Source: a virus | Lineage: Duplodnaviria; Caudoviricetes | Virus record (IMG/VR): IMGVR_UViG_3300020185_000063 | Location: 1-53,177 of that record | DNA length: 53,177 nucleotides | Reading direction: 5' to 3' (one strand) | In this document: piece after piece, positions 22,993-44,091 of the stretch | Layout of the letters: each line of letters begins with the position of its first letter | How positions within the stretch are numbered: position 1 is the stretch's first letter | The notes under the pieces: model-generated | What the model saw: only the letters and a program-made list of their open reading frames with translations | Databases searched by the model: none | What the model was told of the DNA's origin: nothing | Translations under genes and position numbers: made by a program

Positions 22993-25266
22993 ATGGCAGG
23001 ACGTACAGCAGACATATCAACATCATCATTTAAACCACTATCTCTCGATGAGATTATGATGGTTCCTTTAGCTAAGCAAAAGCAAGAGGATCAGCTATTG
23101 GCAGATGCAGACAAGTTTAATCAATTGCAAGCTGATGTCTTATCTGGAGATAAGGAAAAAGCTGAGGGTATAATTAATCAATATAAGAGCCAAGCATCTA
23201 GCTTAGCTGATGAGATTATATCCAAAGGTGTTGATAGAGAACAATTTCATAAGCTAAGAGGATTGAAATCTAAATTAGCTAATGAATACTCTACTGGATT
23301 TTTAGGAGTTGCTGGTGCAAACAAAAAATCAGCAGCAGAGTACTTGAAAAGAATGAAAACTCAAGATGGTCGTCAAGGATGGTCTGCACAAGAAGCAAAT
23401 GATTTTGTTAACAAGCAGATTTCAGGATTCTCAAGCATGGATGAAAATGGAGATTTCAAATCATTTAATGGAAGAGAATTAGCTAAGTGGCAAGATGAAG
23501 ATAAATTCATTGATGCCGCGGCTGACAGAGTTAAAGGTAGTATTTCAAGTAAATCATATCAAGCTATTAAGGTTGGTGGTCTTCCTGAATTTTATAATGC
23601 TGTAAGAGATAATGAAATTAGTGGAGCTGATTTTAACACAGTGATGGCATCTATAAAGTCATCAACTGAAACAAGCCCTGAAATGCTTGCACACTTGAAA
23701 CAACGTGCAGAATTTACTGAGGAAGAAAACTGGAATGACTTTGGTGAGTTTAGAAATGTCGACATCAAACAACCTGATGGAACTACTAAAAAAGTATATA
23801 CATACGTACCTGGTAAATCAAGGTACGCTCAAAAAATGCTAGGTATCGGTAAAGCTAAGTCATCTAAGACATTAAAAATTAGTGACAAGTTTGTCAAAAA
23901 TGATGTCATGTTTCAAATGTGGAAAAATAATTTTGATGAGCAACAACTTGTTAAAATGTATAAGATTCAAACTGGAGAATACTTAGACTTAAAGCCTAAA
24001 GATTTAGTTGAGATGAGAGACCTTAATGCTAGTCTTAGTGTTGGGGTAACTGAGTATGAAGGAAGGATGAAAGAGTTAGAAACACAGCTACTTAACGAAG
24101 GTGTTGATCCGGAAAATATAAAATCACATCCACAGTACTTACCAATGCTTAATGATTACACTCAAGCAAAAACTGACTTAACTAATTCTCAAAATTATAT
24201 TAAACAACTAGAAACTAGTGCTTATGAAAGACTAGATGATAACGGAAAGTCTTGGATCAATGCTAAGAAAATATATGACCAATATAACGGAGATGCAGTA
24301 GAGGCTGTTCACGCTGAATATGGAATAGATCCATCGACACTTGTAGAAGGTTATAATTTCCCTAATACCGAAAGAGGTGAGGCTAGCAAACAAGAAATGA
24401 TTAGAGAAAGGTCTGAAAGATATTTAGCTAAGGAAAATGGTGTAGAAATTCCAACAAACATCTCTGTATTTGATTTTGACAGTAAATATGAGAATACTGC
24501 TGAGAAAATGGATGATCTTATCATGGAAGATATGGAAGCTAACAAAAAAGGTGTTGCTTATACGAAAGTAAACATGCCTAAGACTGGTAAATACTCAAGC
24601 TCTAAGTATAGAACATTTACAGATTTAAGCGAAGAGTTTTTAGACCCAAAAACTGTTACTGTATTAGGGCAGGATAAAATGTCTATAAATGAATACATTG
24701 AAACTGGTGAATTTAAAGATGCTATTGGCGGTTCTGTAAATGCAAAAGAAGGTTTTGAATTTAAAAAATCATTTACTATTGATGGATTCACTGACAAAGG
24801 TGTTCCTTTCGATGAAGTTATTATAAGGAGTAAAGTTGATCCAACAAAACAAGTTATAATTCAAGTTCGTTCTGAAGATTATTCAATGAAAAAAGAACTA
24901 TTTGAATCACTAGTTGCTTCAGGAGATCCAAAACAAAGAATGGAAGGTGAGAAAGGATTGGCGAGCCAATTGTTTATGTCATCTATCAAACAGTCAAACA
25001 TGAGGTATCAAAATGAGGGAACAATGTATGTATCTCTTCCGGGAATGGGAAAAGATGGAGGTACACTCAAAACAAATGAAGTTACATATACAAGAAACAA
25101 AAATAAAGATGGTTCGATTGATTACAGCGTGTCATTGTTTGGAGAGCCTGTTGATTATAAAGGTGTTTATAATTTAAAAGGAGAAGCAGAAGTTGCATAC
25201 GCTTTAAAAGAAAAATACGAAGAGATACTTGAAGAAGTTTCTAATATTGAAGACACTGAAGAATAA
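22993..25266 (+). CDS. cargo / internal virion protein
   Basis: FKPLSLDEIMMVP N-terminus; helical, cysteine-free; within the cargo cluster. Confidence 0.55.
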   Translation: MAGRTADISTSSFKPLSLDEIMMVPLAKQKQEDQLLADADKFNQLQADVLSGDKEKAEGIINQYKSQASSLADEIISKGVDREQFHKLRGLKSKLANEYSTGFLGVAGANKKSAAEYLKRMKTQDGRQGWSAQEANDFVNKQISGFSSMDENGDFKSFNGRELAKWQDEDKFIDAAADRVKGSISSKSYQAIKVGGLPEFYNAVRDNEISGADFNTVMASIKSSTETSPEMLAHLKQRAEFTEEENWNDFGEFRNVDIKQPDGTTKKVYTYVPGKSRYAQKMLGIGKAKSSKTLKISDKFVKNDVMFQMWKNNFDEQQLVKMYKIQTGEYLDLKPKDLVEMRDLNASLSVGVTEYEGRMKELETQLLNEGVDPENIKSHPQYLPMLNDYTQAKTDLTNSQNYIKQLETSAYERLDDNGKSWINAKKIYDQYNGDAVEAVHAEYGIDPSTLVEGYNFPNTERGEASKQEMIRERSERYLAKENGVEIPTNISVFDFDSKYENTAEKMDDLIMEDMEANKKGVAYTKVNMPKTGKYSSSKYRTFTDLSEEFLDPKTVTVLGQDKMSINEYIETGEFKDAIGGSVNAKEGFEFKKSFTIDGFTDKGVPFDEVIIRSKVDPTKQVIIQVRSEDYSMKKELFESLVASGDPKQRMEGEKGLASQLFMSSIKQSNMRYQNEGTMYVSLPGMGKDGGTLKTNEVTYTRNKNKDGSIDYSVSLFGEPVDYKGVYNLKGEAEVAYALKEKYEEILEEVSNIEDTEE

Positions 25267-28200
25267 TGGAAGGAGAAAACGATATAAATTTAGTTGACAG
25301 TCAAGGTGCAGAAGACACAAAAACTGTATCTACTGAAGCAGAAGGTAACACATTAGGTAATTCTGTACCTACTACTGAGACAGAAGATAAGCCTGTTTCT
25401 AGGTGGAGAGATGTAGCTAAGAAGATTAAAAATGGAGAAATAGGAAACGAAGCTCCAATTGAAAGAATCTATGATAAAGTTATTGATGTTAATCTTGATG
25501 ATTATAGGGATTACTTAGGTCCGGATATTTTAAAACCAGACGATCAAGGGGTAGAATTCCTTAACAAAAGAAGAGCTGATGCTCAGTCAATTTACGAGCA
25601 AGCTGGTAACTTTTTAGGTCAAGCTGTTGTAGGGGAAATTATTGGTGGTACTATCGAAGGATTAGGATATATGTTAGATTTAGGATCTATCGTAGATTTG
25701 ATGAAAGGTGAAGAAGTAGAATGGGGTAACTTTATGACTGAATTTGGTCAGAGTATTCGCGAAGGAACTGAAGAAAAATTAAGAATTTATGAAGATCCAT
25801 CAGCAACAGGTTGGGGAAAGATGGCTGATTCTGGATGGTGGTTCTCAAATGGTGTATCCGTAGCCTCTACTTTATCTATGCTCATTCCCACAGCAGGAGC
25901 AATGCGAGCAGCATCTTTTGTTGGAAAAGGTATTGGCTTCAGTAAAGGAGCTAAAGCTGTAAGGAAAGCAGTAGGATTAGCTGAGGAGATGGGAACTAAA
26001 GGTAGATGGATGCAGAATGGTATCTCTCAAGCTGTATTATCTAGGAACATTGAGAACTGGATGGAAGCTCATGGCACATTTGAGGATCAGAGAGAATCTA
26101 TGATGCAACAAACTAATCCTGAAACTGGAGAAAAATTTACAGAAGAAGAAGCAACTAGATTTGCTTCTGAGGCTGCTTCTGAGAACTGGAAAAATGGTTG
26201 GGCAATGTTATTGCAGGATATACCACAATACTTGGCGATAGGTAAGGTATTCAATCCTATAACAAGGAAAATGGAGAATGCGTTAGATGTAGCTTCAAAG
26301 AAAGGAGTGTCAGCTAATTTAAAGCCATGGCAACAAAAAGTAGCAGCATCAGGAAAGACTTTTGTGGGAGAAGGAGCAGAAGAAAGTTATCAGTTCTTAA
26401 TCTCGGAAAGAGCAAAGTTAAAAGCAGACCTGGACGCTGGTTTAATTAACCAAGAACAATACGATAAAAAATTATCAGATGCATTCGGAAGTGAGGATAT
26501 GTTAACCTCAGCTTTCTTTGGTGGTCTTGGTGGTAATGTCTTTCAAGGAGCAGGTAAACTAGTTAATAAGTTATTTGAATCTAAGAGTGATAAAGAATAT
26601 CAGCAAGGTTTATCTGAAATGTATAATAAGATGGTAACTGATGATGCCAAGCAAGTGTCTCTTATGTTTAACCATTTGGCTGAAGTTGATCAGAATGGTA
26701 GCCCTATGATGAGAAAAGCTATCATAAATGAAATGATGCTTAACATGACAGGTAAGGCACTAGAGTCTGATAAGTTTTCTCAGTTTTACGAAGCTCTTCA
26801 GAACATTGGTGAAATGTCTGAAGAAGATATTCAAACACTTAACGAGTCTTCTGACAATGAGTTTAGTGCAGATCTAGCAAAAGCATACTTACCAGAAATA
26901 TTAAAGTCTGCAGAAAAGATGCGTGGCATGTACTTAGGTTTTAGAAATAAGTACAATCCAACGACATCTAATAGACTTGCTAGATTAACATTAGAAAATG
27001 AACAATTATCTGAGATCTCAAATAAAAAATCAGATCAAGTCAGCAGTATAAGAAGTAGTATTCCAAATTTAACACTAATAAATAATTATGAGACTCTTGA
27101 ACTACAAGAAACTCAGGATGTTTTATTAGCTAGAAATAGTAGACTTAAAGAACAAATAAAATCTGAAGAGTCTGATACTAAAAAGAAGTTTTTACAATCT
27201 GTATTAGACTTAAACGAAGAGGAATTAAAAGATGCACAGAAAGCGTTAGATCTCGATAAGAAAGCTAGAAGTAAAAAGCAAAAGAGTGCTAAACAATTAG
27301 ATGCATTTGAAGATGCTAATGCAACTGCAACTAAACCACAAAAGATATTATCTAGTACTGAGGAAAAGAAAGCTAAGATACAATACCTAGCTGCCAAAGA
27401 AGATATTATAGAGGCAAGAATTATTCAGGCTGAAGCTGAAGATAGAAAGCTACTTAACAATGAGGATATGGCTTATGCCAAAACTCCTGAAGGTGCAAGA
27501 AAAGCTGAAGAGGTTCAGCTAAATACAATGCTTGATAAAATAGAAAGTATTGAAGACTTAGAGAGTTTAAGTAAGACTATCGAGAATAATACTACACTTA
27601 GTTCTGAAACTAAGAATTCTATTCAGACTAGAGTGAATGAAAAAATTAAAGCAGCAAAAGCTAAAAAAGCTAAAGAGGATCTTGAAGCAAAGCAAGCTAA
27701 GATTAAAGCTGAAAAGAAAAAGGCTGCCAAGAATAAAGCATCTAATCCTAAAGTAGCTCCCAACACGGTAGTTAAGACTCCTGTGGAAGAAGCAGTAGAA
27801 GATGAGAATGCTGGTGAAGAAATTGATTTCGAAGAAAAGAGATTAGAAAAAGATGACGTTGCTATTGAAGTTAAAACTGGTAACGGCAAAACTATTCCTT
27901 TATTTAACTTAGGAAATAAACTGTATAAGAATTGGATTCTTAATGGTAAGAAGAAAACTGGAATGAAAGGAACATACGATGTTTCTAATGAAGGCCCTTG
28001 GAAGAAAGACAAGAACAGTCTTACATCTAAAGCAGTAGCAGATTTTGCTAAAGCTAAAGCTGGTCAAATGGAAATACCACAATCAGTTTATGACAACTTG
28101 CCAATAAAAATTAGTTTTGATGAGAAAGGTAAACTAAATGCATTCTTGCCATCTAAACCAAGTAATAACTCATCTGCAGAATACAAAGAAAGATATGAAA

Positions 28201-30641
28201 ATAACTATGCTGAGCAGAGAAAAATAATCATAGACGCTTTGTATAGAGGAGAAAAGCCTCAAAGTGAAATATTATTTACTAGTGGTGGACAGCTTCAAAC
28301 TCAAGTTGATGAGAATGATGTAGTTGCAGAAAACAATATTAAAGATTTAAAGCAGGTTAAGGATAGTGGAAAAGTCCCTAACATTGCATACTCTGATATT
28401 AATGGAGAATTATATAACGCTACTAAGATTGGTGGTAAAGCAAAGAGAACTGAAGGATTTGAAAGTACACAATTAGATGTTGGTGAAGATGAGAATGGTG
28501 TAAAGAAACCTTATAAAGGTGGGCTATTTGCTATTATTAGTAAAGCTGATGGCACTCCATTTCCTGTTAGATTAAACTTTCTTAGAAATACAAATGAGCA
28601 GGCTGAAGCATTATCAGATCTACTTATAGGTATCACAGTTCCAGATAAAGCAGGTAAAGGTGCTAAGAGAAAATACAAAATGAGCAGTCCTTTATCTACA
28701 ATAGATAAAGCTACTCAGGATAAAATAAAAGCAGCAATGCCTAATGAAGTTGATTTCCTACCGGGAGATCCTACATTAAATGATTTAATTAACATGTTTG
28801 TTTACGTAAGTGAAAAGACTGAAGGATTAACATCAGGGTTGTATATGTCAGGACATAGATTATACTTCGGAAATGAAGGTAAGTATATTGGTCCTGATAA
28901 AAAGTCTGCAAGCAAAGAAGAGTTGGTTACTTTCTTACGTGATGTAAAGAGAAGACAGCTTAGTTTGAAAATGTGGAATGATACTAAGAACTATCCAGGT
29001 TATAGAGATTTTGTTATGGATAACAGAATTATCAATACCAATGTAGTAGTTGGTGAACCTGAGTTTAATGACAGTGATGAAAGAAAGGTTAAGCTGTATA
29101 TGGCTCCGCTTGTAACTAATGAAGTTCAAGAGTCTCCAGAAGTTGTAACATCTACCAATGATATTGAAGTTGGCGATCAAGGTGTTGCTAACACTATTGT
29201 AGAACAAGATAGGCCAAGTGATACTGAAATTAATGCAGCAATAGCTCAGGAGTTTCCTGGTAAGATGTATAATTATGGAATAAATAGGTTTGATGATGGA
29301 ACTGCTACAACTAAAGTTGGTGATAAACCTATTCCTCTTAATGACTTGCAAAGAATAGATGAAATTATTGACGAAGTAAATAAATTGTATTCTAAGCCTT
29401 CAGTTAATTCAAGTGAAGTTATTCAAGATGGTGATGACATTAAATCTAAAAAAGATGATATAGCTGATATAGCTGATATAGAAAGAAGAAGACAAGAAGA
29501 GTTAGATAAAACAGGTTTGTATGAGTATGACAAAAAGTTTAAAGAATTTCAAACTTATGGTAATACCATAAAAGAAGCTTTTGACAATTTATTTGAACAA
29601 GTAAAAAATAACCCAGCCAATAAAGAACTTAGTAATTTACTTGATTATATTAATGAAAGATTAGTTGCAGAAGATATACAAAAAGGTTCTGGTAAAAATC
29701 CTTTGGTTCAGGAATATATAGATGAAAATCAACAAAATATTGAAAAAGCATCTAAGTCAACTAAAAGTAGAATAAATAAAATCAACGCTAAATATGATGC
29801 TGAATTAGCTGCTCTACAACCAACACAAGCTAGTGAGGTGATTCAGGATTCTGAATGGAAAAATTTTGTAGAAAATGGTCGAGTAACAAATGGAAGCTTA
29901 CAATCAATAGCAATAGCTATTAAGAATGGCAAAACTTTAAGTCCAAGACAAACTGCTATTTTTACAGATAAAACTAGTGAAGTTGAAGAGATCCTAAAAT
30001 CATATCAACCAAAACCACAAACTAGTGATATTGAAATAAAGTATTCTCCAGTAGATATGAAGAACTACGGAAAATCTTATAAACAAGAAGATATATCTGA
30101 AGGAGGAAAAAGTATAGTGTTTAACCCGTATAGGCAAGCCTTTAAAATAAAAAATAGTGTTTTAACTGCCAATATAAATGACATTGATGGTAAAACTTTT
30201 TACCCAATATCTATAGACCTAAGCAACAATCCTGAGTACTTAGATTATCAAGAGAAAAAAGATGCACTTACTGCTGAAAGAACAAGACTAAGAGAAGCTG
30301 GAGAGAAAGGTATTGAAGATATGATTAAAGGAGTTGGAACTGTTATGAGTATGGCTCAAAAAAGAATGCTAGATTCAATAAAAAAAGAGCTTGGAAAGAA
30401 AAATAGTATTGCTTCATTTAAAGGAGGTGATCTATCTCAACCAACACAACAAAGTAGTGATACTCAAAATAGGAATAGTGATAAAAAATCATTAACTTCA
30501 CAACCATCTAAGAAATACACTAGAAAGAAAAGAAGATTAAAAGGTAAAGCTCCTAAAAAGAGTGCACCTACAAAACAAGTAGATAATAAGATTAAACCAA
30601 AAGATGAGAATGGTAAAATAGATACAGATTGCCCATTCTAA
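25266..30641 (+). CDS. giant cargo protein with N-terminal hydrophobic segments and variable C-terminal cassettes
   Basis: 1791 aa; EGAEESYQ motif and Gly-rich hydrophobic helices; directly upstream of the RNA polymerase. Confidence 0.65.
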   Translation: MEGENDINLVDSQGAEDTKTVSTEAEGNTLGNSVPTTETEDKPVSRWRDVAKKIKNGEIGNEAPIERIYDKVIDVNLDDYRDYLGPDILKPDDQGVEFLNKRRADAQSIYEQAGNFLGQAVVGEIIGGTIEGLGYMLDLGSIVDLMKGEEVEWGNFMTEFGQSIREGTEEKLRIYEDPSATGWGKMADSGWWFSNGVSVASTLSMLIPTAGAMRAASFVGKGIGFSKGAKAVRKAVGLAEEMGTKGRWMQNGISQAVLSRNIENWMEAHGTFEDQRESMMQQTNPETGEKFTEEEATRFASEAASENWKNGWAMLLQDIPQYLAIGKVFNPITRKMENALDVASKKGVSANLKPWQQKVAASGKTFVGEGAEESYQFLISERAKLKADLDAGLINQEQYDKKLSDAFGSEDMLTSAFFGGLGGNVFQGAGKLVNKLFESKSDKEYQQGLSEMYNKMVTDDAKQVSLMFNHLAEVDQNGSPMMRKAIINEMMLNMTGKALESDKFSQFYEALQNIGEMSEEDIQTLNESSDNEFSADLAKAYLPEILKSAEKMRGMYLGFRNKYNPTTSNRLARLTLENEQLSEISNKKSDQVSSIRSSIPNLTLINNYETLELQETQDVLLARNSRLKEQIKSEESDTKKKFLQSVLDLNEEELKDAQKALDLDKKARSKKQKSAKQLDAFEDANATATKPQKILSSTEEKKAKIQYLAAKEDIIEARIIQAEAEDRKLLNNEDMAYAKTPEGARKAEEVQLNTMLDKIESIEDLESLSKTIENNTTLSSETKNSIQTRVNEKIKAAKAKKAKEDLEAKQAKIKAEKKKAAKNKASNPKVAPNTVVKTPVEEAVEDENAGEEIDFEEKRLEKDDVAIEVKTGNGKTIPLFNLGNKLYKNWILNGKKKTGMKGTYDVSNEGPWKKDKNSLTSKAVADFAKAKAGQMEIPQSVYDNLPIKISFDEKGKLNAFLPSKPSNNSSAEYKERYENNYAEQRKIIIDALYRGEKPQSEILFTSGGQLQTQVDENDVVAENNIKDLKQVKDSGKVPNIAYSDINGELYNATKIGGKAKRTEGFESTQLDVGEDENGVKKPYKGGLFAIISKADGTPFPVRLNFLRNTNEQAEALSDLLIGITVPDKAGKGAKRKYKMSSPLSTIDKATQDKIKAAMPNEVDFLPGDPTLNDLINMFVYVSEKTEGLTSGLYMSGHRLYFGNEGKYIGPDKKSASKEELVTFLRDVKRRQLSLKMWNDTKNYPGYRDFVMDNRIINTNVVVGEPEFNDSDERKVKLYMAPLVTNEVQESPEVVTSTNDIEVGDQGVANTIVEQDRPSDTEINAAIAQEFPGKMYNYGINRFDDGTATTKVGDKPIPLNDLQRIDEIIDEVNKLYSKPSVNSSEVIQDGDDIKSKKDDIADIADIERRRQEELDKTGLYEYDKKFKEFQTYGNTIKEAFDNLFEQVKNNPANKELSNLLDYINERLVAEDIQKGSGKNPLVQEYIDENQQNIEKASKSTKSRINKINAKYDAELAALQPTQASEVIQDSEWKNFVENGRVTNGSLQSIAIAIKNGKTLSPRQTAIFTDKTSEVEEILKSYQPKPQTSDIEIKYSPVDMKNYGKSYKQEDISEGGKSIVFNPYRQAFKIKNSVLTANINDIDGKTFYPISIDLSNNPEYLDYQEKKDALTAERTRLREAGEKGIEDMIKGVGTVMSMAQKRMLDSIKKELGKKNSIASFKGGDLSQPTQQSSDTQNRNSDKKSLTSQPSKKYTRKKRRLKGKAPKKSAPTKQVDNKIKPKDENGKIDTDCPF

Positions 30642-30655
30642 ACTAAAATAACATT

Positions 30656-33600
30656 ATGAGTTGTAATATTTTGAATCCTGCAAATGGGAAGAAGTCCGAA
30701 TTGCATACCAAATTTCAAGAGATATTTCAAGACGATCAGGCTGCAGAAATTGCTTATGCAAAAGTTGTGGGCCCAAGTTTTAAAAGAAGGTTTGGAGATT
30801 GGGTGTATAACTACAAGAACCCAACAGATGAGAACCTAGAAAAAATAGGTGAGGTTAACGCCATGACTGGTGAACCTAAATTATTTAAAGATCCTGCCAC
30901 AAACCTTTGGTATTTCAAAGATAAGAATGGTGACAGAGACTACATTGATAAAATGAAGTTCTCTCAGTTTGAGGCACAAGAAGTCGAGCAGGTTACAAAT
31001 CACTTTCTACACAGATTTGTATTAGAAGGAGGTAAGAAATCATTTAATGAATACACTCCAGATGAACTAGAGAAGGGTAGAATTACGGCTTCTATAAACA
31101 GAAGTATTACTGCTTATGAAAAAGCTATTCAAAGCAAACCTAATAAGGATGTACTTCAAGAAAGAATAAATCTAGTTAAACAGAATAAAGAAGATTTTAA
31201 GAATGAACTTATATCATCTATCGAAAGATTAGGTGTTAAGGTACGTCAAAGAATAACTGATGCTCAAGGTAATCCTGTTACTGAAGTTGCTGAAGAAGAC
31301 AAGGGTGGTGGACTGAACATGAAAGATTCTTTTGAGACAAATTCAAAAGAGAATGCCACGGTGAATACTAAAATAATGCTTCACCAGATTGAAAACTTAG
31401 AAGAAAATGAAGATGGAGATTTAGTTCCAATTAAAGATGGTTTTTTAGAAGTAGAATCATTTGCAAACTTTGATGACGTATGGAATACTTTAAATAAAAT
31501 ACTAGTCGACACAGTAGGTTATTCTCAAGAAGAAGCTGTATTCGATGTATTCAATTTAATGCTTGATAAATTAAAAGCATACGATGAAATAAAGTTCTGG
31601 ATCAAGCCACTTGTAAACAAGTTAGAGCATTTTAGAAACTCAGGGCAGAATGAAAAGATTAATGAGTTCGTACAGGCTTTCACAAAGACACACTTAAATT
31701 TCTTAGTAACAGAAGTTAACAAAGGAAACTACACTGTAATTAATGCTACATCCACAAATAGTAGAGAATCTCAATTGACTAATCGATGGAGTAATAACTT
31801 TTACGATAAATTTACATCTGAGAATGAATTAACCGATGCAGCCAGAGGGGTCTTGAATTCTATCTACAAAGATATGGCTGCTTCTAAAAAGAAGTTTAAT
31901 GAGAAGCTGACAAAATTAAGAAGAGAATCTACCAATGTAAAATCAGAATATTTCCAAGAAGAATTATTTGAATTTTATGAAGACGCGGCAATTGAAATAA
32001 CTGACATCCTAAAAAGAATGGGTGTTACTGATGTTTACCCGCAGGATATTGACAACTTAGTTGTTATGAATGGTGGTGAAGTTAAAAAGATTGACACTAT
32101 TGATTTGCTTTATACTAGTCTTGAATGGACTATGAAAAGATTAGCTGACAAAAATGCATCATTAGAAGACAATGGAGAGAGGTTTAATATGTTTAAATAC
32201 CAAACAGGTATATTTTCATTTGCCAAAGCTGTTGCTATGAGAGAAGTCGATATGGCTGATGCTTCAGTTTTATTAAGTAATGGTAAGACGGGGTATTCAT
32301 TTTCTAATCCCACATACGTCTCTAATAAAATAAATGAATGGAAGTCTGATGGTGGCGAGCAATTAGAGAAAATGTTGTCAAAGGCAAACAAGCAAAATTC
32401 TCTTTGGATTAGACACTTACTTGCAAAGGATAAACCTAAGGGAGAAGAAAGAGAAATGGAGATGGCTAACAGGTTAGATAAATTTCAGGCAGGTTTAGAT
32501 TCATCTTTCAAATCAAAAGGTAAGAATGATGGTGTTGAGAATACTAAAATAACAATGAATGACCAAGTTAATGCTAATATTTCTCAATTACTGAATGAAG
32601 CATTAGGAGGTGGTAATAAATCTTACTTCCCAACAATCATTGCTGCAGATAAATCACGAAGAATATTATTCGAAGGATTTAATATGGAAACTTTTAATTT
32701 TTCTACATTAGATGACGGTAGCTTATACATTGATGAGAAAGCTGTTGACATTGCATTAGGATACTTTGAAGATGAGTACAGAAGAATGCAAGAGGTTTTA
32801 CGTGAGAATGAAGATGATAATATTGCAAAAGTAGTGCACTACCATGGTGAAGATGGTAATGGATTAAAATCTCAAATATTTCCTGAGTTTAGTGTGGATG
32901 GAAAAGATCCTAAATACAAAACTCTAAGAGGATTACTTTACGGAAAAGAATTTAAGGAATCAAAAGATAAATATGAAGGGCTTACTGATATTCAAAAAGA
33001 TGAATTAAGAAAGCACATCAAAGAAAATATTAAAGACAGAGTAACTGAACATACTCAAGCTGTAAGTAAATTAGCAGGATTAAACAAGAAATTGTTAAAA
33101 CACTATGAAAGCTATTCTAATCTAGCAGGTAACTATTTTATGAATGGATTAATATCCTCGGTAGAATATACAAAGTTATTTTCTGGAGATCCAGCATATT
33201 ACAAGAACACGGCAGATTTAATCAAAAGAATTCCTGCCACATATACGGATGGATTACAATTAAGATTAAAGAAAGAAGATGATTTAATTTTTAACCAGGC
33301 AACTGTTGAAGGAGTTGAGGTAGCTTCGCGATATGTTGAGAAAATTAGAGAGTCTGTAACTGACAAATCTATTGCTGATGCTTATGACAGAGTAAATACT
33401 ACTGATGCTCAAGCATGGATTACTCCTCGTCGATGGAGATTTATCAAACAAAGATTAGGTCAATGGAGTCCAATGCACGATAATGTGTATAAGAAAATGA
33501 TGACTGGAGAGACTCTAAAGGATAGAGAAATGAAATTGGTAGCTCAGCCATTAAAAGGAGTTTACTTTGAGATTAATGACAACAGGCCAGTGTATTTGAA

Positions 33601-36600
33601 ATACTCTCAAGCTGTTCTTATTCCATCTATGGTAAAAGGAACTCCAATGGAAGCACTTTATAATAAAATGGTTAATAATCCTGAGACTGGGAAGCCATAT
33701 AAAGATGGTGAGGCACACAAAGAAATACACGAAGTAATAACTATCGATGGGATTAAAGCTGGTGCTGTAACGCCTACTCCAATAAATAAAGCAGGTACAA
33801 CAGAGATGCTTCCTGAATCAGATATTGAGCTAAATGTTGTTAAGTTAAACAATAGAGGTTGGAAACTTCAACAAGATTTGCCTACTAAATTAATGCACGA
33901 CACTAATGTAGGATCTCAAATTCAAAAGAATATTCTCGAAGGTTTAGACATGAACTATGAGTATGATTTTGAAGGAGGTATGGAAGGTAGAGATTTATTA
34001 GACTCAATACATGCAACAGTATCCAAGCTGTCTAATCTTGGTGTACAAGAAATTAAAGATGAATTTAAGATTGATGAGAATGATAAGATGACTGATAAAT
34101 CTTTCATCTACAAAACACTAATCGATGAATTCAAAGACAGAGGTGGAAATGAAAACATAGTAGAAGCACTTCAAAAAGGATTGCCATTTGACTCTATACC
34201 ACAAATTAGAGGTAAAGTTGAAAGTATATTCATGTCTATAATGAATAAAAGAATAACCAAAATATCTACTTATGGTGGTTCATTTATTCAGGTATCTCCA
34301 TTTGGATTAGAAACAGTAAAAAAAGATAGTGGAATTATACCATTATCTGAAGATTTTGTAAAAGAAGGTGCATTATTACCTCCTCGTATTGAAAATGGAA
34401 AAGTACTTCCGGGACAGGCAATGATACCACATTCACAGGCTGTAAAACTGCTTAAAGAAAATGGGATTAAATTAGCTGGTAAAGATATGAAGTCTGCTAT
34501 GGCCTTATTAGATCCTAGTGCATTAGAAATGATCACATATCGTATTCCTAACCAAGGGATGTCATCTAATGATTACTTACAAATTGTTGGTGTTCTTCCT
34601 CCTGGAGCTGGAGATAGTATTGTGGTTTATGATGGACTACCTGCTAAGACTGGTAGTGACTTTGATATTGATAAGTTATTTGCTATGCAGAACCATGCCA
34701 TATACGATCCTGAAACTGGTAAAGTGACAAAACTTACAGAAGCTAATAAACATTTAGCTGTAAAGAAAAAAGGAAGAAGAGCTTATACAAATAAAGAAGG
34801 TAAAAAAATAACAGCAGTTCCAGACACAATGTATTCTGAAGCTGAGTTAAATAAAATGCTTACAGAGAATAAACTTGTAGCACAATATAAAGCTGTGTTA
34901 AATTCTCCAGCAACCTATGATGCAATGATGAGATCTATTGATGGTTCTCAATTGAAAGATGATATTGCTGGAGACAAAAAGAAAGGTATAAAAGGACTAT
35001 TCCCTGCTCCTGAAATGAGCAATATGGAATTATTCTCACCACTTACTCAGTTAAAAATCAAGAGTGAATATTTATCTGGTAAGACTGGTGTTGGTTTAAC
35101 AGCTAATCAGTTAGTTGACCACGTAATGAATCAGACACAAAATGTAAGAATGCAAAAATGGTTAGGTATTGGTAACTCTCGAATGGAAGATGTCAATGGT
35201 AAGCAAAAGAAAATAACATTCTTTGATACTGAAACAACAGACAAGCATTCAATAGCTGACAACTTATCTGCATTCCTTAACGCGTATGTTGATATTGCTA
35301 AGGATCCATATATTTCAAGAGGTAATCATAATTCAATAACAGCTAATACTACATTTATGTTATTGAGAGCTGGTGCAGATCTTAAATGGGTAAATAGATT
35401 TATAGGTCAGCCAATACTTAGGGAGCTTGCTGAATTAACATTAGAGCAACAGAGTATTACTAAAGATAGTATTATGCTAGAGGGTGATGACGGAGAGAAA
35501 TTCAAAGGTGCTCCAATAGATGAGTTGTTAGCAAAATATGCATTACCAAAGATACCGAGTAATACATCTGGAACTACTGTTGCTAATCTTAGTTCTAGTG
35601 AATTAGAGAATAACATCAAGTCTGATGGAAGCAATCGAAACTTAAACTATGAAGTATTGAAAGCATGGAGCTTTTTATCTGAGCAGGCAAAATTCTTCGG
35701 AGAAGGAGTTATAGCAGCTAAGTCAGATACAGCAGGCCCAGGAGGTAGTAATATAGACAGATTAGTTAATGACAATAAGATTAAGAAGGTTAAGAATGAA
35801 GGTGTATTAGTAGGATACATGGATAAGTTTGATGGCACAATGCTCGGAACTTATAAAAGTAATTCTCTTGATTGGGTTAAAAGTGTAATCAGAAATAGTG
35901 AGCTATTCATATCTGGTACTGCAGATGCAGAAATTGCATACAATAAAATATCATTTCAAACTGGTAATGGTAAGTTATTGACAAATGCAAAATTAGGTAA
36001 AGCGATAGATAACAATTACTATTCTTATATGATGTCAGGAACTTCATTGTTTAAAAATAGTTATAGGAACTATAAATCTATCATGGAAAATACTCCATTG
36101 AAAGTTATGAAGATGCAACAGGATATGGCTGATGATCCAAATATTAATTCCTTAATCAATGCACTTGAAATAGAAGAAAGAAATGGAATTAATTACATTG
36201 GTATCAATAACAGAAATAAACCAACGGATTATCAGAATAAAATTTACAGAGCTTGGGCTAGTCTGTATGAGACATATTATAAAAATGAAGATGGATCTGT
36301 AAACAGAGAAGATATTCATCCGGATAAGAAACTAGCTATCGACTTAGTAAGGTACGCGTATTTAAGTTCTGGATTCCAGAATAACCTTGCTCAATTCTTT
36401 ACCCACATTCCTCACCAAATACTTAAAGACTTTAATTTAAGTGGTGAGATAAGAGATGCAATTAGAAATCAAACAATGTCATCTGATGATATATTTGTTG
36501 ACCAATTTCAGAGACATAGTAAAGAAGATTCTAAGATAGTTAAGATGCTTGATGTAAAAAAAATGGAAGGTAATTCATTTGGATTTGTTTATAGGCCTGC

Positions 36601-37102
36601 ACGTAATAAGAGTCAAGAGTTTGGAACAGTAGATCCAACTACAAAAGGAAAAAACAATAGATACTTCCCTAAGTTTGTAAATGGAAAGGTATCTAACTTT
36701 AATCCACAAACACGTTGGACTTCAGTTAAAAATTACCTTTATGAAAAGAAAGGATTTGTGGAAAGAGAAGATGCAGAAGGTAAGATGATTAAGGTTCCAG
36801 TTTATGTCAGAACATTCGAACTTGGATCAAAGGATGGAAAATATCGTACATTTGAGTACAGTAAAGATACTCCATTAACAAAATCTAATGTTGATGCAAA
36901 TAACCTGACACCATGGGTTCAAAAGAAAATTGATGATTTCTTGGATAATATTAAATTAGAAAGTACCTTTAGTGACTTAAATGGGCTTGATGTAAATCAG
37001 GCGATGATTGATGCTGTTGAAACTCAAAGGGCTTCAAACAAAACAGTAGTAAGAGAAAATTTAACACAAATAATAGAGGATTATAAAATCCCTTGTAAAT
37101 AA
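30656..37102 (+). CDS. virion-packaged single-chain two-barrel RNA polymerase (phi14:2 gp66-like)
   Basis: 2148 aa; catalytic GSDFDIDK (DFDID at 34658-34672), YRIPNQG, TDAQAWI, DIAKDP motifs. Confidence 0.9.
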   Translation: MSCNILNPANGKKSELHTKFQEIFQDDQAAEIAYAKVVGPSFKRRFGDWVYNYKNPTDENLEKIGEVNAMTGEPKLFKDPATNLWYFKDKNGDRDYIDKMKFSQFEAQEVEQVTNHFLHRFVLEGGKKSFNEYTPDELEKGRITASINRSITAYEKAIQSKPNKDVLQERINLVKQNKEDFKNELISSIERLGVKVRQRITDAQGNPVTEVAEEDKGGGLNMKDSFETNSKENATVNTKIMLHQIENLEENEDGDLVPIKDGFLEVESFANFDDVWNTLNKILVDTVGYSQEEAVFDVFNLMLDKLKAYDEIKFWIKPLVNKLEHFRNSGQNEKINEFVQAFTKTHLNFLVTEVNKGNYTVINATSTNSRESQLTNRWSNNFYDKFTSENELTDAARGVLNSIYKDMAASKKKFNEKLTKLRRESTNVKSEYFQEELFEFYEDAAIEITDILKRMGVTDVYPQDIDNLVVMNGGEVKKIDTIDLLYTSLEWTMKRLADKNASLEDNGERFNMFKYQTGIFSFAKAVAMREVDMADASVLLSNGKTGYSFSNPTYVSNKINEWKSDGGEQLEKMLSKANKQNSLWIRHLLAKDKPKGEEREMEMANRLDKFQAGLDSSFKSKGKNDGVENTKITMNDQVNANISQLLNEALGGGNKSYFPTIIAADKSRRILFEGFNMETFNFSTLDDGSLYIDEKAVDIALGYFEDEYRRMQEVLRENEDDNIAKVVHYHGEDGNGLKSQIFPEFSVDGKDPKYKTLRGLLYGKEFKESKDKYEGLTDIQKDELRKHIKENIKDRVTEHTQAVSKLAGLNKKLLKHYESYSNLAGNYFMNGLISSVEYTKLFSGDPAYYKNTADLIKRIPATYTDGLQLRLKKEDDLIFNQATVEGVEVASRYVEKIRESVTDKSIADAYDRVNTTDAQAWITPRRWRFIKQRLGQWSPMHDNVYKKMMTGETLKDREMKLVAQPLKGVYFEINDNRPVYLKYSQAVLIPSMVKGTPMEALYNKMVNNPETGKPYKDGEAHKEIHEVITIDGIKAGAVTPTPINKAGTTEMLPESDIELNVVKLNNRGWKLQQDLPTKLMHDTNVGSQIQKNILEGLDMNYEYDFEGGMEGRDLLDSIHATVSKLSNLGVQEIKDEFKIDENDKMTDKSFIYKTLIDEFKDRGGNENIVEALQKGLPFDSIPQIRGKVESIFMSIMNKRITKISTYGGSFIQVSPFGLETVKKDSGIIPLSEDFVKEGALLPPRIENGKVLPGQAMIPHSQAVKLLKENGIKLAGKDMKSAMALLDPSALEMITYRIPNQGMSSNDYLQIVGVLPPGAGDSIVVYDGLPAKTGSDFDIDKLFAMQNHAIYDPETGKVTKLTEANKHLAVKKKGRRAYTNKEGKKITAVPDTMYSEAELNKMLTENKLVAQYKAVLNSPATYDAMMRSIDGSQLKDDIAGDKKKGIKGLFPAPEMSNMELFSPLTQLKIKSEYLSGKTGVGLTANQLVDHVMNQTQNVRMQKWLGIGNSRMEDVNGKQKKITFFDTETTDKHSIADNLSAFLNAYVDIAKDPYISRGNHNSITANTTFMLLRAGADLKWVNRFIGQPILRELAELTLEQQSITKDSIMLEGDDGEKFKGAPIDELLAKYALPKIPSNTSGTTVANLSSSELENNIKSDGSNRNLNYEVLKAWSFLSEQAKFFGEGVIAAKSDTAGPGGSNIDRLVNDNKIKKVKNEGVLVGYMDKFDGTMLGTYKSNSLDWVKSVIRNSELFISGTADAEIAYNKISFQTGNGKLLTNAKLGKAIDNNYYSYMMSGTSLFKNSYRNYKSIMENTPLKVMKMQQDMADDPNINSLINALEIEERNGINYIGINNRNKPTDYQNKIYRAWASLYETYYKNEDGSVNREDIHPDKKLAIDLVRYAYLSSGFQNNLAQFFTHIPHQILKDFNLSGEIRDAIRNQTMSSDDIFVDQFQRHSKEDSKIVKMLDVKKMEGNSFGFVYRPARNKSQEFGTVDPTTKGKNNRYFPKFVNGKVSNFNPQTRWTSVKNYLYEKKGFVEREDAEGKMIKVPVYVRTFELGSKDGKYRTFEYSKDTPLTKSNVDANNLTPWVQKKIDDFLDNIKLESTFSDLNGLDVNQAMIDAVETQRASNKTVVRENLTQIIEDYKIPCK

Positions 37103-37107
37103 AAGTT

Positions 37108-40100
37108 ATGAGTTGTAAGTACCAATTTAAAGGAGAAATGTACACTGAAGATCAGTTAATAGAAATATTGGCTAGAGACTCAAAAATAATTGATAAGTAC
37201 AAATCTCAAGAAGAAAGATTAACTTCAGATGATTTTGCTAAAGAAGACTTAGCTACATTCGAAGAGAAAGTGGCTGCGTTAAAACAAACAATGAATGTTG
37301 AGGTTATAATGGATGAAACTGTTGAGACTTCAAGAGTTTTGGGTAGAGGAGATAAAAGGGTTAAGGAAGCAGGAAAGCCTGTAATTCTTATTAACCCTAA
37401 TTCCATATTCAAGACTACGGCAATACATGAGTTTGGGCATATATTTATCGATGCATTTCCAAAAGGAATTGATAATCCAAGAATACAACGTGCACTAAAA
37501 GAATTAGAAGGAACTGAATTAGCAGCTCAGGTAACTGAAGCATATCCAGACCTATCACCAGAAATGTTACAAAAAGAGATTCTTGTAACTGCAATTGGTC
37601 AGAAAGGATCTGAATTATGGGACGCGGGAAAGAAAAGTAAATGGGAAACATTTATGGCGTGGTTCTCTGACTACATCAAGAGAACCTTTGGACTAGAGAG
37701 AAGTGAAGTAGAAGCACTATCAAGAGATTTGTTGAGCAATAAGGTGAAACAGACAGGTGTTACACGCTTGAATAAAATAGCTCAAGAGCAAAAAAGGGTG
37801 AAAGTTGAAGAAGATAAAACTGAGACTGAAGAGAAGTTTGATAAGGTTGTAACTTCAATAGAAAAAACACACGCTAGAGTATTAGGTACTGCACAAAAAT
37901 TACTTGCAAGACAAAAGGATAAGCAGAAGTCTAAAGATGCTAGACGTAGAGAAAATAGAAGAGTAAAAGCAGGTAAGACTACCAGACTGTCCTCTATTAC
38001 TGAACTGCAGGAAGCACTTACTAAGTATGAAGATGCTGATAAGATGTTAGGTATTGTAAAGTACACTGAATGGGCTGCAAAAGAGCTTTCATTTATGAAG
38101 AGTGAAATCGAACGCAGAAAAGAAGAAAATAAAGTAACAAGTAATAACCTTGATAAATCATTTGACTGGGCGAAATCTTTTAGAGTTGTTGAAGATATTC
38201 AGGATCTATTAGCAAAAACTTCTGAAGAAGAGATTTTAGAATACATGACTGAGGAACAATTAGATTCTTTAAAGGCAATGGTTAGTTATATTTCATCTGC
38301 AAGAAATGACGTTCAGGCAGAGCTTTTAAACTTATCCAGAATTGAATACGCTAAGATATTAGCAGATAATGACATTCAGACAGAGGAAAGGTATAAAACT
38401 GAATATAGAGAGGAATGGGACGCTTTAAATGAAGCAGGAGGCACATCTTTACAAGAAGGTGAATACATTATTCAAAAGATGCAGGAGAATAAAGAAGCAA
38501 TTGAAGAAGAGAAATTGCTTATAGCTGAGGAAAGAGCTCGTAGAGGTCAAGGTCAGTTAAGTATGTTATCTATGCAAATATTATCTGAGAAGCAAATGAA
38601 GTCGAGAGATATTCAAGCTGTATCTGCAATGTTAGATCAGGCTTCTGCAAGAGTAGAAAGATTTGCAACTGAAGAAGCAACTGTAGTTCTTGAAGAATTT
38701 AATGAATTTCAAAAGTCTAGAGCTGCTAATGTAAAAAGTAGAGACATGCGTAAGAGATATAAAGGAATGTTTGTATTCTCTGAAGGTGGTCAAGGATACT
38801 TTACATCTGAATATGTTCCTGAATTTTTAGAGGAGAAAAAAGATATGCTTGCTAGAATGTATGAAAAAGAAAGTCAGGACGAATTATTCGAAGATACTGA
38901 AGTAAGAATTGTAACTGGACAGAAAAGAGACCAGACAGGTGATCTGGTAAATACAAAAACTTATGAATATGATTCTCAAGTAATATCTACAAAGACTGGC
39001 AAACCTATGAAAGGTGTGTTAAGATTCGGTGGAGCAAAAAATATTAAGTTAGAGGGAGAAGGAACACTAAAGAAAGGTGAGAGAGCAACACATGTATTGT
39101 ATGAGAACTCTGCTGGAAAAGAAGTTAGAATCACACTTAATGAAGCTATTGCTCGAAGTGAATATACAGCATGGAAAAAGACTAATACCAAGACTACAAT
39201 AACAATGGAGTATGGTATGAAGACTAAGTCTGTTACACCTGTTGATAAATGGAAATCTAAAGAATGGGAAGAGCTCAAGAAAGATCCAGTTAGATTTAAA
39301 GAACTCGAAAGATTAAAGGAAAGAGTAAGAGAAGGAAATATGGATTATGACAATAGAGATTCATTAATATCCAAGGAAGGAACTATTGACTTTATTAGAC
39401 TTCCAGGTGTAATGAAATCTACTGTATCAAGAGCTGTGCAAAAGCAAAGTGCCAAAACATTAGGTGAGCATTTATTAAGTACAATGGTTGAGACTCAAGC
39501 TGATGATTTCGATACACAATCAATGAAGTCATATACTAACTTCTCTGAAGGTGAAACTTTAAGAATACCTATCCCATACAGAACTCAATTAAAAGAGTCT
39601 GACCAGTCGTTAGATCTTCACCAGTTAGTTACTATGGATAGAATAATGGCTAAGAATTATAGAGAGAAAAAAGCTATTGAAAGCTCACTAAAAGTTATTC
39701 AGGAAGTGCTCAAGGAAAAAAGATTTCCTGTATTAGATCCTATTACTGGTCGTCAAAAAGAAGATGCACAGTCAGGAGAATTGCTATGGAAGACAAGCAA
39801 AAACTCTACAATACAAGAGTACGAGAAAATACAGAGTATGATTGAAAATAGATTATACGGTATTACTGCCAAGCAAGCTGGTGGATTCCAAGTTACTAGA
39901 AACAAGGGTAAAGAAAATGAGAAAAATTATACTGTCGAGTATCAACAATTAGGTCAGACACTAACTAAATATTTTGGTAGTGTATCACTTGTATTCAACT
40001 ATATGAACAGTATTGTGAATGCTGGTACTGGTACACTTTCTAATTTAATAGAAGCTGTCGGTGGTGATGTTTACAATTTGAGAGATTATAAGAAAGCTCA

Positions 40101-41256
40101 AGCTGAATACAATAAGGATCTGAAAAATATAATGAGTGACTGGGGTTCTCCAGTAGCAACATCAAAAACAAACTTATTACTTAACGCGTTTAATGTAATG
40201 GGACCGGATTATATTCAAAAGAATTTTGAGAAGAGTGGTAAAGCTGAAGGATTACTTAGTCAGAGTACATTAAGACCTGTTGCAAAAATGGGTGAACACA
40301 TGATGCAATCTAAAGTAATGTATGCAATACTTAGCAGTATCAAGGTTCAGAACAATAAAGGACAATGGATTGGTAAGGACGGAAAGAAAGTTTCTAGTAA
40401 GAAACAAGCAGCAAGTATGTCTGATATGGTTTCATTTAAGAAAACTGCTAATGGTAGAATGGAAATGGCTTTACACGAAGCTGTTGAAAATACTTCATTT
40501 ACTACAGGTGGGAAAGAACGAATATTATTAGAAACTAGAAATCTAATCAGAGCTAAAGTTGATGAGTTACATGGTCAATATACAACAGATATTCAGGCAC
40601 ATGCTCAGAGAACTATGATTGGTAAATTAGGTTTCTTTTTAAGAAAATGGATGATACCTGGATACTTACGTAGGTTTAGAGGTGTTAATAACTCAATAAA
40701 AGCATCTAATACAGAATTAGCTGAAGCTGATGAATTCTTTTCTGCAGATCAAAAAGACAATATAGAAGGATATTATGTAACTGCATTCAGGTTTATGTCA
40801 CAAGTAGTCAAGGATGCTAGAGAAGATTCTATTAGTATTACTAAGAGTTGGAAAAATTTAACTCCAAAGCAACAAGCTGGAGTTAGAAAGAGCTTAATGG
40901 ATCTATCATTGATAGCTATTGTTTATGCTTTATCTGCTGGATTAGACGCTGGAGATGATGATGATGAACTGATTCACATGAGGTATTTAGTTAGAAGACA
41001 ACTATCAGAGCTTGCTAACTTTGTTAACCCTGCAGAAGCATTTAAAATTGCATCTACACCAACGGCTGCTACAGGTAATTTAAAACAGATACTAAAAACT
41101 ATGTATCAATTATTTAATCCTGCTGAAGCATATAAGGTTGGCCCATACAAAGGAGAATTAAAACTTAAGCACAAGGCTAAGAAATTATTGCCTAGATTTA
41201 AAAATGAAGAAGACTTTAAACAAGCGTTAGAGTTCTTGAACAATATGAGCATGTAG
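37108..41256 (+). CDS. giant cargo protein with N-terminal zincin-like (HExxH) domain
   Basis: TAIHEFGH (HEFGH at 37426-37440) with downstream KEILVTAIG; long helical C-terminal region. Confidence 0.65.
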   Translation: MSCKYQFKGEMYTEDQLIEILARDSKIIDKYKSQEERLTSDDFAKEDLATFEEKVAALKQTMNVEVIMDETVETSRVLGRGDKRVKEAGKPVILINPNSIFKTTAIHEFGHIFIDAFPKGIDNPRIQRALKELEGTELAAQVTEAYPDLSPEMLQKEILVTAIGQKGSELWDAGKKSKWETFMAWFSDYIKRTFGLERSEVEALSRDLLSNKVKQTGVTRLNKIAQEQKRVKVEEDKTETEEKFDKVVTSIEKTHARVLGTAQKLLARQKDKQKSKDARRRENRRVKAGKTTRLSSITELQEALTKYEDADKMLGIVKYTEWAAKELSFMKSEIERRKEENKVTSNNLDKSFDWAKSFRVVEDIQDLLAKTSEEEILEYMTEEQLDSLKAMVSYISSARNDVQAELLNLSRIEYAKILADNDIQTEERYKTEYREEWDALNEAGGTSLQEGEYIIQKMQENKEAIEEEKLLIAEERARRGQGQLSMLSMQILSEKQMKSRDIQAVSAMLDQASARVERFATEEATVVLEEFNEFQKSRAANVKSRDMRKRYKGMFVFSEGGQGYFTSEYVPEFLEEKKDMLARMYEKESQDELFEDTEVRIVTGQKRDQTGDLVNTKTYEYDSQVISTKTGKPMKGVLRFGGAKNIKLEGEGTLKKGERATHVLYENSAGKEVRITLNEAIARSEYTAWKKTNTKTTITMEYGMKTKSVTPVDKWKSKEWEELKKDPVRFKELERLKERVREGNMDYDNRDSLISKEGTIDFIRLPGVMKSTVSRAVQKQSAKTLGEHLLSTMVETQADDFDTQSMKSYTNFSEGETLRIPIPYRTQLKESDQSLDLHQLVTMDRIMAKNYREKKAIESSLKVIQEVLKEKRFPVLDPITGRQKEDAQSGELLWKTSKNSTIQEYEKIQSMIENRLYGITAKQAGGFQVTRNKGKENEKNYTVEYQQLGQTLTKYFGSVSLVFNYMNSIVNAGTGTLSNLIEAVGGDVYNLRDYKKAQAEYNKDLKNIMSDWGSPVATSKTNLLLNAFNVMGPDYIQKNFEKSGKAEGLLSQSTLRPVAKMGEHMMQSKVMYAILSSIKVQNNKGQWIGKDGKKVSSKKQAASMSDMVSFKKTANGRMEMALHEAVENTSFTTGGKERILLETRNLIRAKVDELHGQYTTDIQAHAQRTMIGKLGFFLRKWMIPGYLRRFRGVNNSIKASNTELAEADEFFSADQKDNIEGYYVTAFRFMSQVVKDAREDSISITKSWKNLTPKQQAGVRKSLMDLSLIAIVYALSAGLDAGDDDDELIHMRYLVRRQLSELANFVNPAEAFKIASTPTAATGNLKQILKTMYQLFNPAEAYKVGPYKGELKLKHKAKKLLPRFKNEEDFKQALEFLNNMSM

Positions 41257-43869: not shown

Positions 43870-43872
43870 TTA

Positions 43873-44079
43873 TTATTTCATTTCTTTAAATTTTTGTTCA
43901 ATTTTCGTTAAAGCAAGATTGTATCCAAAATTAATAGACAATTGCATTAACAAAAAATCATTAGAACCATAATTAGCACTTGCAAAACCTTCTAAATACT
44001 CTCTTGATGGAGTTGCAACAATTGCTCTATCAAGCATTGTTATTTCTTTTTCTATAAATTTTTTTATATCCTTACTCAT
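43873..44079 (-). CDS. hypothetical protein
   Basis: 68-aa ORF tightly packed in operon. Confidence 0.55.
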   Translation of the reverse strand: MSKDIKKFIEKEITMLDRAIVATPSREYLEGFASANYGSNDFLLMQLSINFGYNLALTKIEQKFKEMK

Positions 44080-44091
44080 TTTATTTAGCTT

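Follow-up and report, generated by a model that had tools for sequence, protein, structure and literature searches.

Cysteines at the facing ends of three giant virion RNA polymerase module proteins of a crass-like phage suggest a head-to-tail disulfide chain

No phages of the human gut are more abundant than the crassviruses, and the locus described here bears on how these store and inject their RNA polymerase (RNAP) proteins, ~700 kDa in all. The locus belongs to IMG/VR virus record IMGVR_UViG_3300020185_000063 (Duplodnaviria; Caudoviricetes), and the whole stretch of it that was analysed, 53,177 nucleotides (nt), is called the window. Three consecutive giant proteins of the window, with 1791, 2148 and 1382 amino acids (aa), are designated P1, P2 and P3. 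A first-pass annotation of the window had proposed, from the positions of their few cysteines, that these proteins are coupled head to tail. The genes and motifs concerned are the following.

25266..30641, + strand: P1, 1791 aa, first link of the proposed chain; Cys1789, codon 30630-30632, is third from the C-terminus
30656..37102, + strand: P2, the virion RNA polymerase by homology, 2148 aa; Cys3, codon 30662-30664, and Cys2147, codon 37094-37096
34658-34672, + strand: DFDID, the DFDxD catalytic motif in P2, residues 1335-1339
37108..41256, + strand: P3, RNAP-associated protein by homology, 1382 aa; Cys3, codon 37114-37116
37426-37440, + strand: HEFGH zincin-type motif of P3, residues 107-111, ~100 residues past Cys3 in a well-conserved stretch

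Cysteine is nearly absent from the three proteins, and where it occurs, it marks the ends that face each other in gene order. Their 5321 residues contain P1 Cys1789, P2 Cys3 and Cys2147, P3 Cys3 and no others. The codons are TGC at 30630 and TGT at 30662, 37094 and 37114. P1 ends in ...DTDCPF, P2 starts with MSCNIL... and ends in ...KIPCK, and P3 starts with MSCKYQ...; the outer ends, which are the N-terminus of P1 and the C-terminus of P3, are free of cysteine. The claim of the first-pass annotation that there are four cysteines in total, all within three residues of facing ends, is exact to the base. At the cysteine frequency of 0.96% found in the non-chain proteins of the surveyed loci (see below), 51 cysteines would be expected in 5321 aa (Poisson P of four or fewer, ~2e-17). 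The chance of one cysteine in each of the four 3-residue windows at the inner ends is ~2e-12, a figure calculated post hoc. The other window proteins have an ordinary cysteine content. The genes are separated by 14 nt (P1-P2) and 5 nt (P2-P3). A single polyprotein made by read-through is ruled out in the window because the three open reading frames (ORFs) occupy three different frames.

The identity of the module comes from sequence comparison. P2 matches phi14:2 g066, annotated as 'Catalytic RNA polymerase subunit', with 31% identity over 90% of its length (tblastn), and it matches PDB 6VR4 with an E-value of 2.4e-210 (phmmer). P3 matches phi14:2 g065 and crAss001 gp49 (tblastn). P1 has relatives in the fetched loci (blastp), and its correspondence to phi14:2 gp67 (1797 aa) is by position and length only, with no blastp match between the two. 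Since P2 is homologous to phi14:2 gp66 and P3 to g065/gp49, P1 matches gp67 by position and size, and the 830-aa protein encoded upstream carries crAss_CARG1, the window is assigned by homology to a crass-like phage, and P1, P2 and P3 to the virion RNAP module of Crassvirales (phi14:2 gp65-gp67 type). Megablast of the region against phage records gave no match, P1, P2, P3 and the three cargo-region proteins upstream of them had no match among the PHROGs families, and Pfam gave no match for P3, zincin domain included. P3 can be read as a putative zincin from its HEFGH motif and from a statement on gp65 orthologues in the Drobysheva preprint (bioRxiv 10.1101/2020.03.07.982082). The module proteins of phi14:2 and crAss001 were detected in virions (bioRxiv 10.1101/2020.03.07.982082; PMC10172136). 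By analogy with the tandem mass spectrometry notes in the phi14:2 record and with crAss001 virion proteomics, P1, P2 and P3 would be packed and ejected.

Does the pattern of the window extend to its relatives? An IMG/VR search with the single P2 sequence found no relatives, and a two-sequence alignment was required. The alignment-driven scan gave 106 relatives, of which 80 were kept (79 distinct loci). With 20 further loci cut from named crass and cyanophage records, the survey comprises the window and 100 loci. Blastp links 225 ORFs of at least 700 aa to P1, P2 or P3 in a single component, from which the muzzle proteins are separate. The survey was reduced to 50 non-redundant lineages, consisting of 46 RNAP-core groups and four added by hand, and the most complete locus of each lineage was counted. 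A cysteine was assigned to a junction when it lies at most 12 residues from the upstream C-end or at most 10 residues from the downstream N-end. Sense TAG is known for gut crassviruses. In the survey, 61 of 101 sources read TAG as sense in RNAP-module genes, with up to 84 in-frame TAG codons per gene, and these were translated as Q. They are L026, L028-L080 and named records such as L088, L092, L093, L096 and L098-L100; sense TGA was absent from the three records checked for it (L098-L100).

Cysteine is present on both facing ends at 69 of the 73 evaluable split junctions of the 50 lineages. The remaining junctions have it on the upstream side only (two), on the downstream side only (one) or on neither side (one). 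Counted by ends, 141 of 146 facing ends carry a cysteine versus 0 of 92 outer ends (0/46 N-ends and 0/46 C-ends). For comparison, the share with a cysteine is 8.2% for the first 10 residues and 10.6% for the last 12 residues in 462 other proteins of these loci. All 70 N-end cysteines fall within positions 2-7, and 36 of them occupy position 3; of 71 C-end cysteines, 63 are 1-4 residues away from the terminus. The pattern of phi14:2 is identical to that of the window: gp67 (1797 aa) has cysteine only as its last residue, gp66 (2180 aa) at 3 and 2179, and gp65 (1421 aa) at 3. The same terminal cysteines are found in crAss001 gp47, gp50 and gp49. By the taxonomy lines of the records, the pairing rule is present in Steigviridae, Suoliviridae and Intestiviridae. 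The terminal pair of cr272_1 is kept (..HCKN at the end, MIFC at the start), even though the two proteins tolerate 39 and 21 cysteines. Internal cysteines number 2 in 128,566 aa (0.016 per 1000) in the phi14:2-like set that includes the window versus 182 in 115,949 aa (1.57 per 1000) in the named gut and animal records, a difference whose source may be the oxidising strength of the habitat. The expectation that terminal cysteines are kept in pairs at the gene junctions of relatives was borne out, and the pattern is far beyond chance, conserved across the order, and covaries with gene splitting.

This covariation is seen where the genes are fused. RNAP-region genes of crass-like phages occur both fused and split, as the first-pass annotation had stated and as the preprint (bioRxiv 10.1101/2020.03.07.982082) and the surveyed loci agree. 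In L010 and L016, P2 and P3 form one protein of 3516 aa whose sole cysteine is residue 7. In L021, P1, P2 and P3 are fused into a protein of 4732 aa from the first start codon (4726 aa from the first ATG) that contains no cysteine. The 4720-aa fusion of L025, which includes the RNAP region (only P2 is detected by blastp), has its sole cysteine at 4719, and the next protein starts with MAC. Suoliviridae-type loci have P1 and P2 fused (4000-6400 aa), with no cysteine at the N-end and always one at the C-end, and their P3 always has one at its N-end. Some of these fused proteins have a single internal cysteine, hence no internal pair is possible in them. In Intestiviridae, a zincin-bearing protein of 2018-2312 aa ends in cysteine, and an RNAP fusion of 4098-4407 aa starts with M-x-C.

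The sequence of a lost junction can be followed directly in L010, where '..IPCK' (stop) and 'MSCKYQFKG..' of the split form align with '..NSKT-EGKGKMPQD..' and homology continues on both sides. In a tree of the RNAP core (FastTree, 46 rows), L010 and L016 are nested in a split-form clade with 100% local support; therefore, the fusion and the loss of both cysteines are derived there. FastTree gives a quick tree, and the placement of L020 and L025 in it is unsure. The old P1|P2 boundary, sought in the fusions with a hidden Markov model of P2 N-termini, could be placed only in L021, near residue 1385. The cysteine pair and the peptide bond are interchangeable, which suggests that selection keeps covalent continuity itself.

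A disulfide of the same geometry has been seen in an unrelated phage. In the outer layer of the pre-ejectosome, the cryo-electron microscopy structure of cyanopodophage A4 (Anabaena phage A-4L) has gp27 Cys1715 and gp26 Cys5 joined by a disulfide (PNAS 2025, PMC12002296). Within a pentameric ring that surrounds the portal axis, the bond 'further stabilizes' the insertion of the C-terminal gp27 helix into a gp26 cleft (PMC12002296). In the A-4L record, these residues are the sole cysteines of gp27 (1717 aa, ..DNPCQF) and of gp26 (1114 aa, MSKHC). The signature is kept in five of five family members examined, out of 20 records matched, and relatives with ~25% identity, namely Pf-WMP3, Pf-WMP4, TR020 and CHP58, keep it. 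As in the window, two consecutive giant internal proteins are otherwise free of cysteine and the upstream one has its cysteine third from the C-end (..DNPCQF in A4, ..DTDCPF in the window); the downstream cysteine of A4 is residue 5. Unlike the window, A4 has one link instead of two, and there is no RNA polymerase in the pair. The bond seen in A4 carries the same sequence signature, and a disulfide chain thus has a structural precedent elsewhere. The available text of the A4 paper describes the bond as stabilising the structure locally, and crassviruses are not mentioned in it.

Homology between the crass chain and A4 gp27/gp26 was considered and rejected. Comparison of gp27 and gp26 with the P1, P2 and P3 family profiles gave a probability of at most 0.3% (hhalign), and A-4L proteins found no match among all large ORFs of the loci (blastp, E<=0.01). 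Used as a query for related loci, A4 gp26 returned A-4L itself only. Phmmer and profile searches of the PDB with P1 and P3 returned coiled-coil noise only, and a Foldseek search of the PDB with an AlphaFold2 (AF2) model of P1 gave 0 matches at E<=0.001.

What would the paired cysteines do? We consider it likely, from the sequence pattern and the A4 analogy, that P1, P2 and P3 are packed in the capsid joined head to tail by two inter-protein disulfides that form outside the reducing cytoplasm. The bonds would be P1 Cys1789-P2 Cys3 and P2 Cys2147-P3 Cys3. The product would be a covalent chain of ~5300 residues, equivalent to the single polyprotein of the fused-gene lineages. All other cysteines would be selected against, and the purge of cysteine in the clade of the window, at 0.016 internal cysteines per 1000 aa, reads as avoidance of wrong bonds. 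The chain would hold the three proteins as one unit for packaging or ejection; covalent continuity could ensure that they are co-packaged stoichiometrically, keep them stable under the pressure in the capsid, or let them pass as one thread. Reduction in the cytoplasm would then free the proteins. We infer the formation of the bonds in crass virions from these lines together, and the role as a unit in packaging or ejection, with release by cytoplasmic reduction, can be proposed less firmly. Ordered threading through the tail, which the first-pass annotation had envisaged, would be a reasonable extension.

Structure prediction bears on one end of the proposed chain. The AF2 model covers the last 800 aa of P1 with a mean predicted local distance difference test score (pLDDT) of 66 and contains a confident mixed alpha/beta domain at model residues ~20-280. 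Residues 1708-1776, just before Cys1789, have a pLDDT below 50 and belong to a low-confidence tail, which is compatible with a flexible predicted tail. Complex prediction for residues 1-650 of P3 with residues 1969-2148 of P2, run with alignments made for this analysis, gave a score of 0.28 with the mark at 0.32 and counts neither way.

Several other explanations of the cysteines have to be weighed. The tight spacing of the window genes, with gaps of 14 and 5 nt, would suit the idea that terminal cysteines are a by-product of nucleotide signals at the junctions, such as those of translational coupling, or of chance in cysteine-poor proteins. However, the pair persists in crAss001, PhiCrAssBcn9, cr128_1, cr85_1, cr106_1 and cr116_1, where the gene for the P1 homologue lies on the other strand, far from P2 and convergent with the P2 and P3 genes. 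P1 of these six rearranged genomes has a single cysteine 2-4 residues from its C-end, and the RNAP has one at residues 3-5; in crAss001, the cysteines are residue 2339 of 2341 in gp47 (P1), residues 5 and 2404 in gp50 and residue 5 in gp49. Since it is kept with P1 on the other strand, the cysteine pair is a feature at the protein level. Codon contexts and flanking residues also differ widely, and the occupancy of facing ends (141/146) versus outer ends (0/92) speaks against chance. In our view, the rearranged Steigviridae genomes have already refuted the by-product explanation, which is left with practically no probability. Only the cysteine itself is constant at the junctions; the commonest neighbour recorded, a lysine after it, occurs at 17 of 70 N-ends and 25 of 71 C-ends. 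The wide variation of the flanking residues and the scarcity of histidine near the cysteine argue against a coupling signal and a metal site at the junctions. The first-pass annotation had left the choice between a disulfide and a shared metal; the pairing of facing ends and the A4 disulfide favour the former, and the latter is disfavoured by the single cysteine per end and the rarity of histidine. A shared metal would mean a zinc clasp between the facing cysteines or, at P2|P3, a cysteine switch that keeps the zincin zinc of P3 capped until delivery. The HEFGH motif ~100 residues past Cys3 of P3 and the zincin-like protease domain named in gp65 orthologues (bioRxiv 10.1101/2020.03.07.982082) are in its favour, but histidine occurs within three residues of the cysteine at 0 of 70 N-ends and 6 of 71 C-ends, a second metal ligand is not conserved, no zincin motif was found next to the P1|P2 junction although that junction carries the pair too, fused L010 keeps the zincin-homologous stretch of P3 without either cysteine, and the A4 pair is a disulfide (PMC12002296). 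We regard metal binding as very improbable. As a class, intermolecular zinc clasps and hooks have at least two ligands per partner (CxxC, or Cys plus His) as opposed to the one cysteine per end seen here with histidine rare, and a zincin cysteine switch would place a cysteine wherever the HExxH domain occurs, which L010 contradicts. Split inteins and trans-splicing were likewise rejected: Pfam scans of P1, P2 and P3 found no intein family, and cysteines 1-4 residues from the C-end and at 3-6 at the N-end, with no conserved flanks, are unlike the +1 and first-residue cysteines of inteins.

The main rival concerns function and follows the reading of the A4 authors. The disulfides would be real but would act as structural staples of folded cargo or of a pre-ejectosome, with neither an ordered thread nor a train released by reduction. 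In A4, the bond does stabilise a gp27 helix in a gp26 cleft of a pentameric ring (PMC12002296), and in crAss001, gp47, gp49 and gp50 are placed in the capsid cargo zone with folded helical structures predicted for them (Bayfield et al., PMC10172136). However, a staple is not obviously swappable for a peptide bond, yet the pair and the fusion replace each other, and the low AF2 confidence of P1 residues 1708-1776 would fit a tether better than a docked helix. Staples without a chain are, on this balance, rather unlikely, and the covalently joined chain remains the preferred explanation.

A number of points nevertheless weigh against the proposed chain. The direct evidence for a bond comes from A4 only; with no detectable homology between the crass and A4 proteins, the precedent is an analogy only. 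The gut habitat is anoxic, which makes spontaneous oxidation less obvious. The fused polyproteins are 'likely cleaved' according to the Drobysheva preprint (bioRxiv 10.1101/2020.03.07.982082), and if they are, covalent continuity is needless there. Coming from related lineages, the 69 junctions are not 69 separate cases, and independent changes of junction state amount to only a handful. Finally, four of the 73 junctions break the rule (L019, L073, IAS virus and cr116_1). The single P1 cysteine of L019 is 32 residues away from the end. In L073, a 1273|2953 break is flanked by no cysteine; among four near-identical relatives, three (L075-L077) carry an unbroken P1+P2 ORF of 4406 aa and one is truncated at the 5' end, and the break may result from misassembly or be a very recent split yet to gain the pair. 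The 837|2159 break of IAS virus lies inside a stretch of Ns. In cr116_1, an extra 833-aa protein has cysteine as its last residue and none at its N-end.

The region of cr116_1 in question (L090, NC_055882, 14438-17780) contains a 215-aa ORF with six cysteines, followed by the 833-aa protein, with four, between the RNAP gene and the P3-like gene. It is the only three-cysteine 'junction' found in the survey, and the insertion may be a mobile element or an intron-borne endonuclease. Another irregularity is L007, whose P1 is truncated relative to that of the otherwise identical L008.

The chain can be compared with other systems. The N4 polymerase belongs to a different, T7-like family. Like the crass chain, the ejected proteins of N4-like phages show strong suppression of cysteine in proteins that cross the envelope: gp71, gp72 and gp73 of Schitoviridae and gp50 of N4 are free of cysteine (PMC11445570), in agreement with the background given in the first-pass annotation. 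Unlike in the crass chain, cysteine is suppressed completely, a single giant chain makes up the polymerase, and the available text describes no terminal pairs. Two-chain AB toxins (PMC6899712) resemble the proposed chain in their interchain disulfide, a covalent link outside the cell, and their release by cytosolic reduction on entry; the proteins are unrelated and the setting is different, and the resemblance is one of principle only.

A pair of related proteins occurs outside Crassvirales. Leptolyngbya phage Lbo-JY46 (L085, PP438436, 8507-21413) is a cyanophage placed outside the order by its taxonomy line. Its 1552-aa protein has cysteine only as the last residue and matches the P1 profile (91%, E 9e-7), and the next protein, of 2748 aa, has cysteine only at residue 4 and contains a C-terminal P3-type domain (99.9%, E 2e-32). 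No RNAP homology was detected in the 2748-aa protein, and searches of the PDB with the Lbo-JY46 proteins gave no match. The P1-like/P3-like pair may be a polymerase-less version of the chain. In the same phage, a 674-aa protein encoded two genes upstream of the P1-like gene starts with MKKKC, with no partner seen for it.

These occurrences lead to a broader, tentative suggestion, which we hold to be possible rather than probable. Terminal cysteine pairs could be a general and portable way for podophages to split a giant ejected polyprotein into genes and rejoin the products covalently after assembly; in crassviruses, the RNAP would be the middle wagon, released by reduction. The suggestion arises because the rule is found in lineages without detectable homology, namely the crassvirus RNAP module, gp27-gp26 of Saffermanviridae and the P1-like/P3-like pair of Lbo-JY46. 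If it is true, the order and number of links of an ejection chain could be read straight from the genome. For crassviruses, the rule gives a concrete topology, in which the C-end of P1 is joined to the N-end of P2 and the C-end of P2 to the N-end of P3. It explains the free fusing and splitting of the module genes and suggests a reason for the purge of cysteine from ejected proteins, namely that only intended bonds form. It also makes the chain question testable on existing material, as reduced and non-reduced samples of crAss001 virions have already been analysed by mass spectrometry (PMC10172136). The cargo is not visible in published virion maps, and crAss001 virions do contain disulfides elsewhere, in the tail and in gp57 (PMC10172136), a point in favour of the proposed bonds. 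The terminal cysteine rule is absent from the available text of that paper and of the Drobysheva preprint, in which cysteine and disulfide have 0 mentions. No paper stating the rule for crass phages was found in a search whose coverage was thin for subscription journals and excluded supplements. Within the literature searched, the three-protein chain around a crass RNA polymerase and the split/fusion rule are new; the one case in print has a single link and comes from a phage family that is unrelated.

Upstream of P1, the window contains a crass-type structural block on the + strand, in which head, muzzle and three cargo-region proteins precede P1, P2 and P3.

3168-4667, + strand: major head protein, phrog_11589
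13492..17592, + strand: muzzle-type virion structural protein, 1366 aa, phrog_28748 (E 2.9e-250); 10 cysteines, a normal content
17780..20272, + strand: cargo protein 1 homologue, 830 aa from TTG at 17780 (803 aa from ATG at 17861), Pfam crAss_CARG1 (E 8.7e-20); outside the chain
20274..22970, + strand: 898-aa cargo-region protein with one cysteine, at 766; outside the chain
22993..25266, + strand: 757-aa cargo-region protein with no cysteine; outside the chain

The 830- and 757-aa proteins have 0 cysteines each by translation, as had been reported earlier. The 898-aa protein was said to have only its catalytic cysteine. The single cysteine stands, at 766, and the word 'catalytic' is plausible from sub-threshold matches to CHAP (E 6e-4, 20.7 bits with a cut-off of 26) and NlpC/P60 (E 0.012), both from residue 761. 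Relatives of this protein have 417-529 aa and lack cysteine throughout; it exceeds them by ~370-480 aa, and the extra C-terminal part holds both matches and Cys766. On the minus strand, positions 42778-48493 belong to the early/replication side and encode a PDDEXK-like DUF3799 protein, a radical SAM protein resembling spore photoproduct lyase and a MoxR-type AAA+ ATPase.

Two further observations concern cysteine chemistry elsewhere in these genomes. Small thioredoxin-like genes are annotated near replication genes in cr128_1 (L087, 7428-7673) and Rudgehvirus jaberico (L095, 28330-28605); none was found among ten minus-strand window proteins scanned. Some cargo-region proteins have exactly two internal cysteines that are 8-9 residues apart, at 390/398 in crAss001 gp45 (L083), at 259/267 in the cr106_1 homologue (L091, 30083-32449) and at 369/378 in phi14:2 g069 (L001), and these may form an intramolecular pair.

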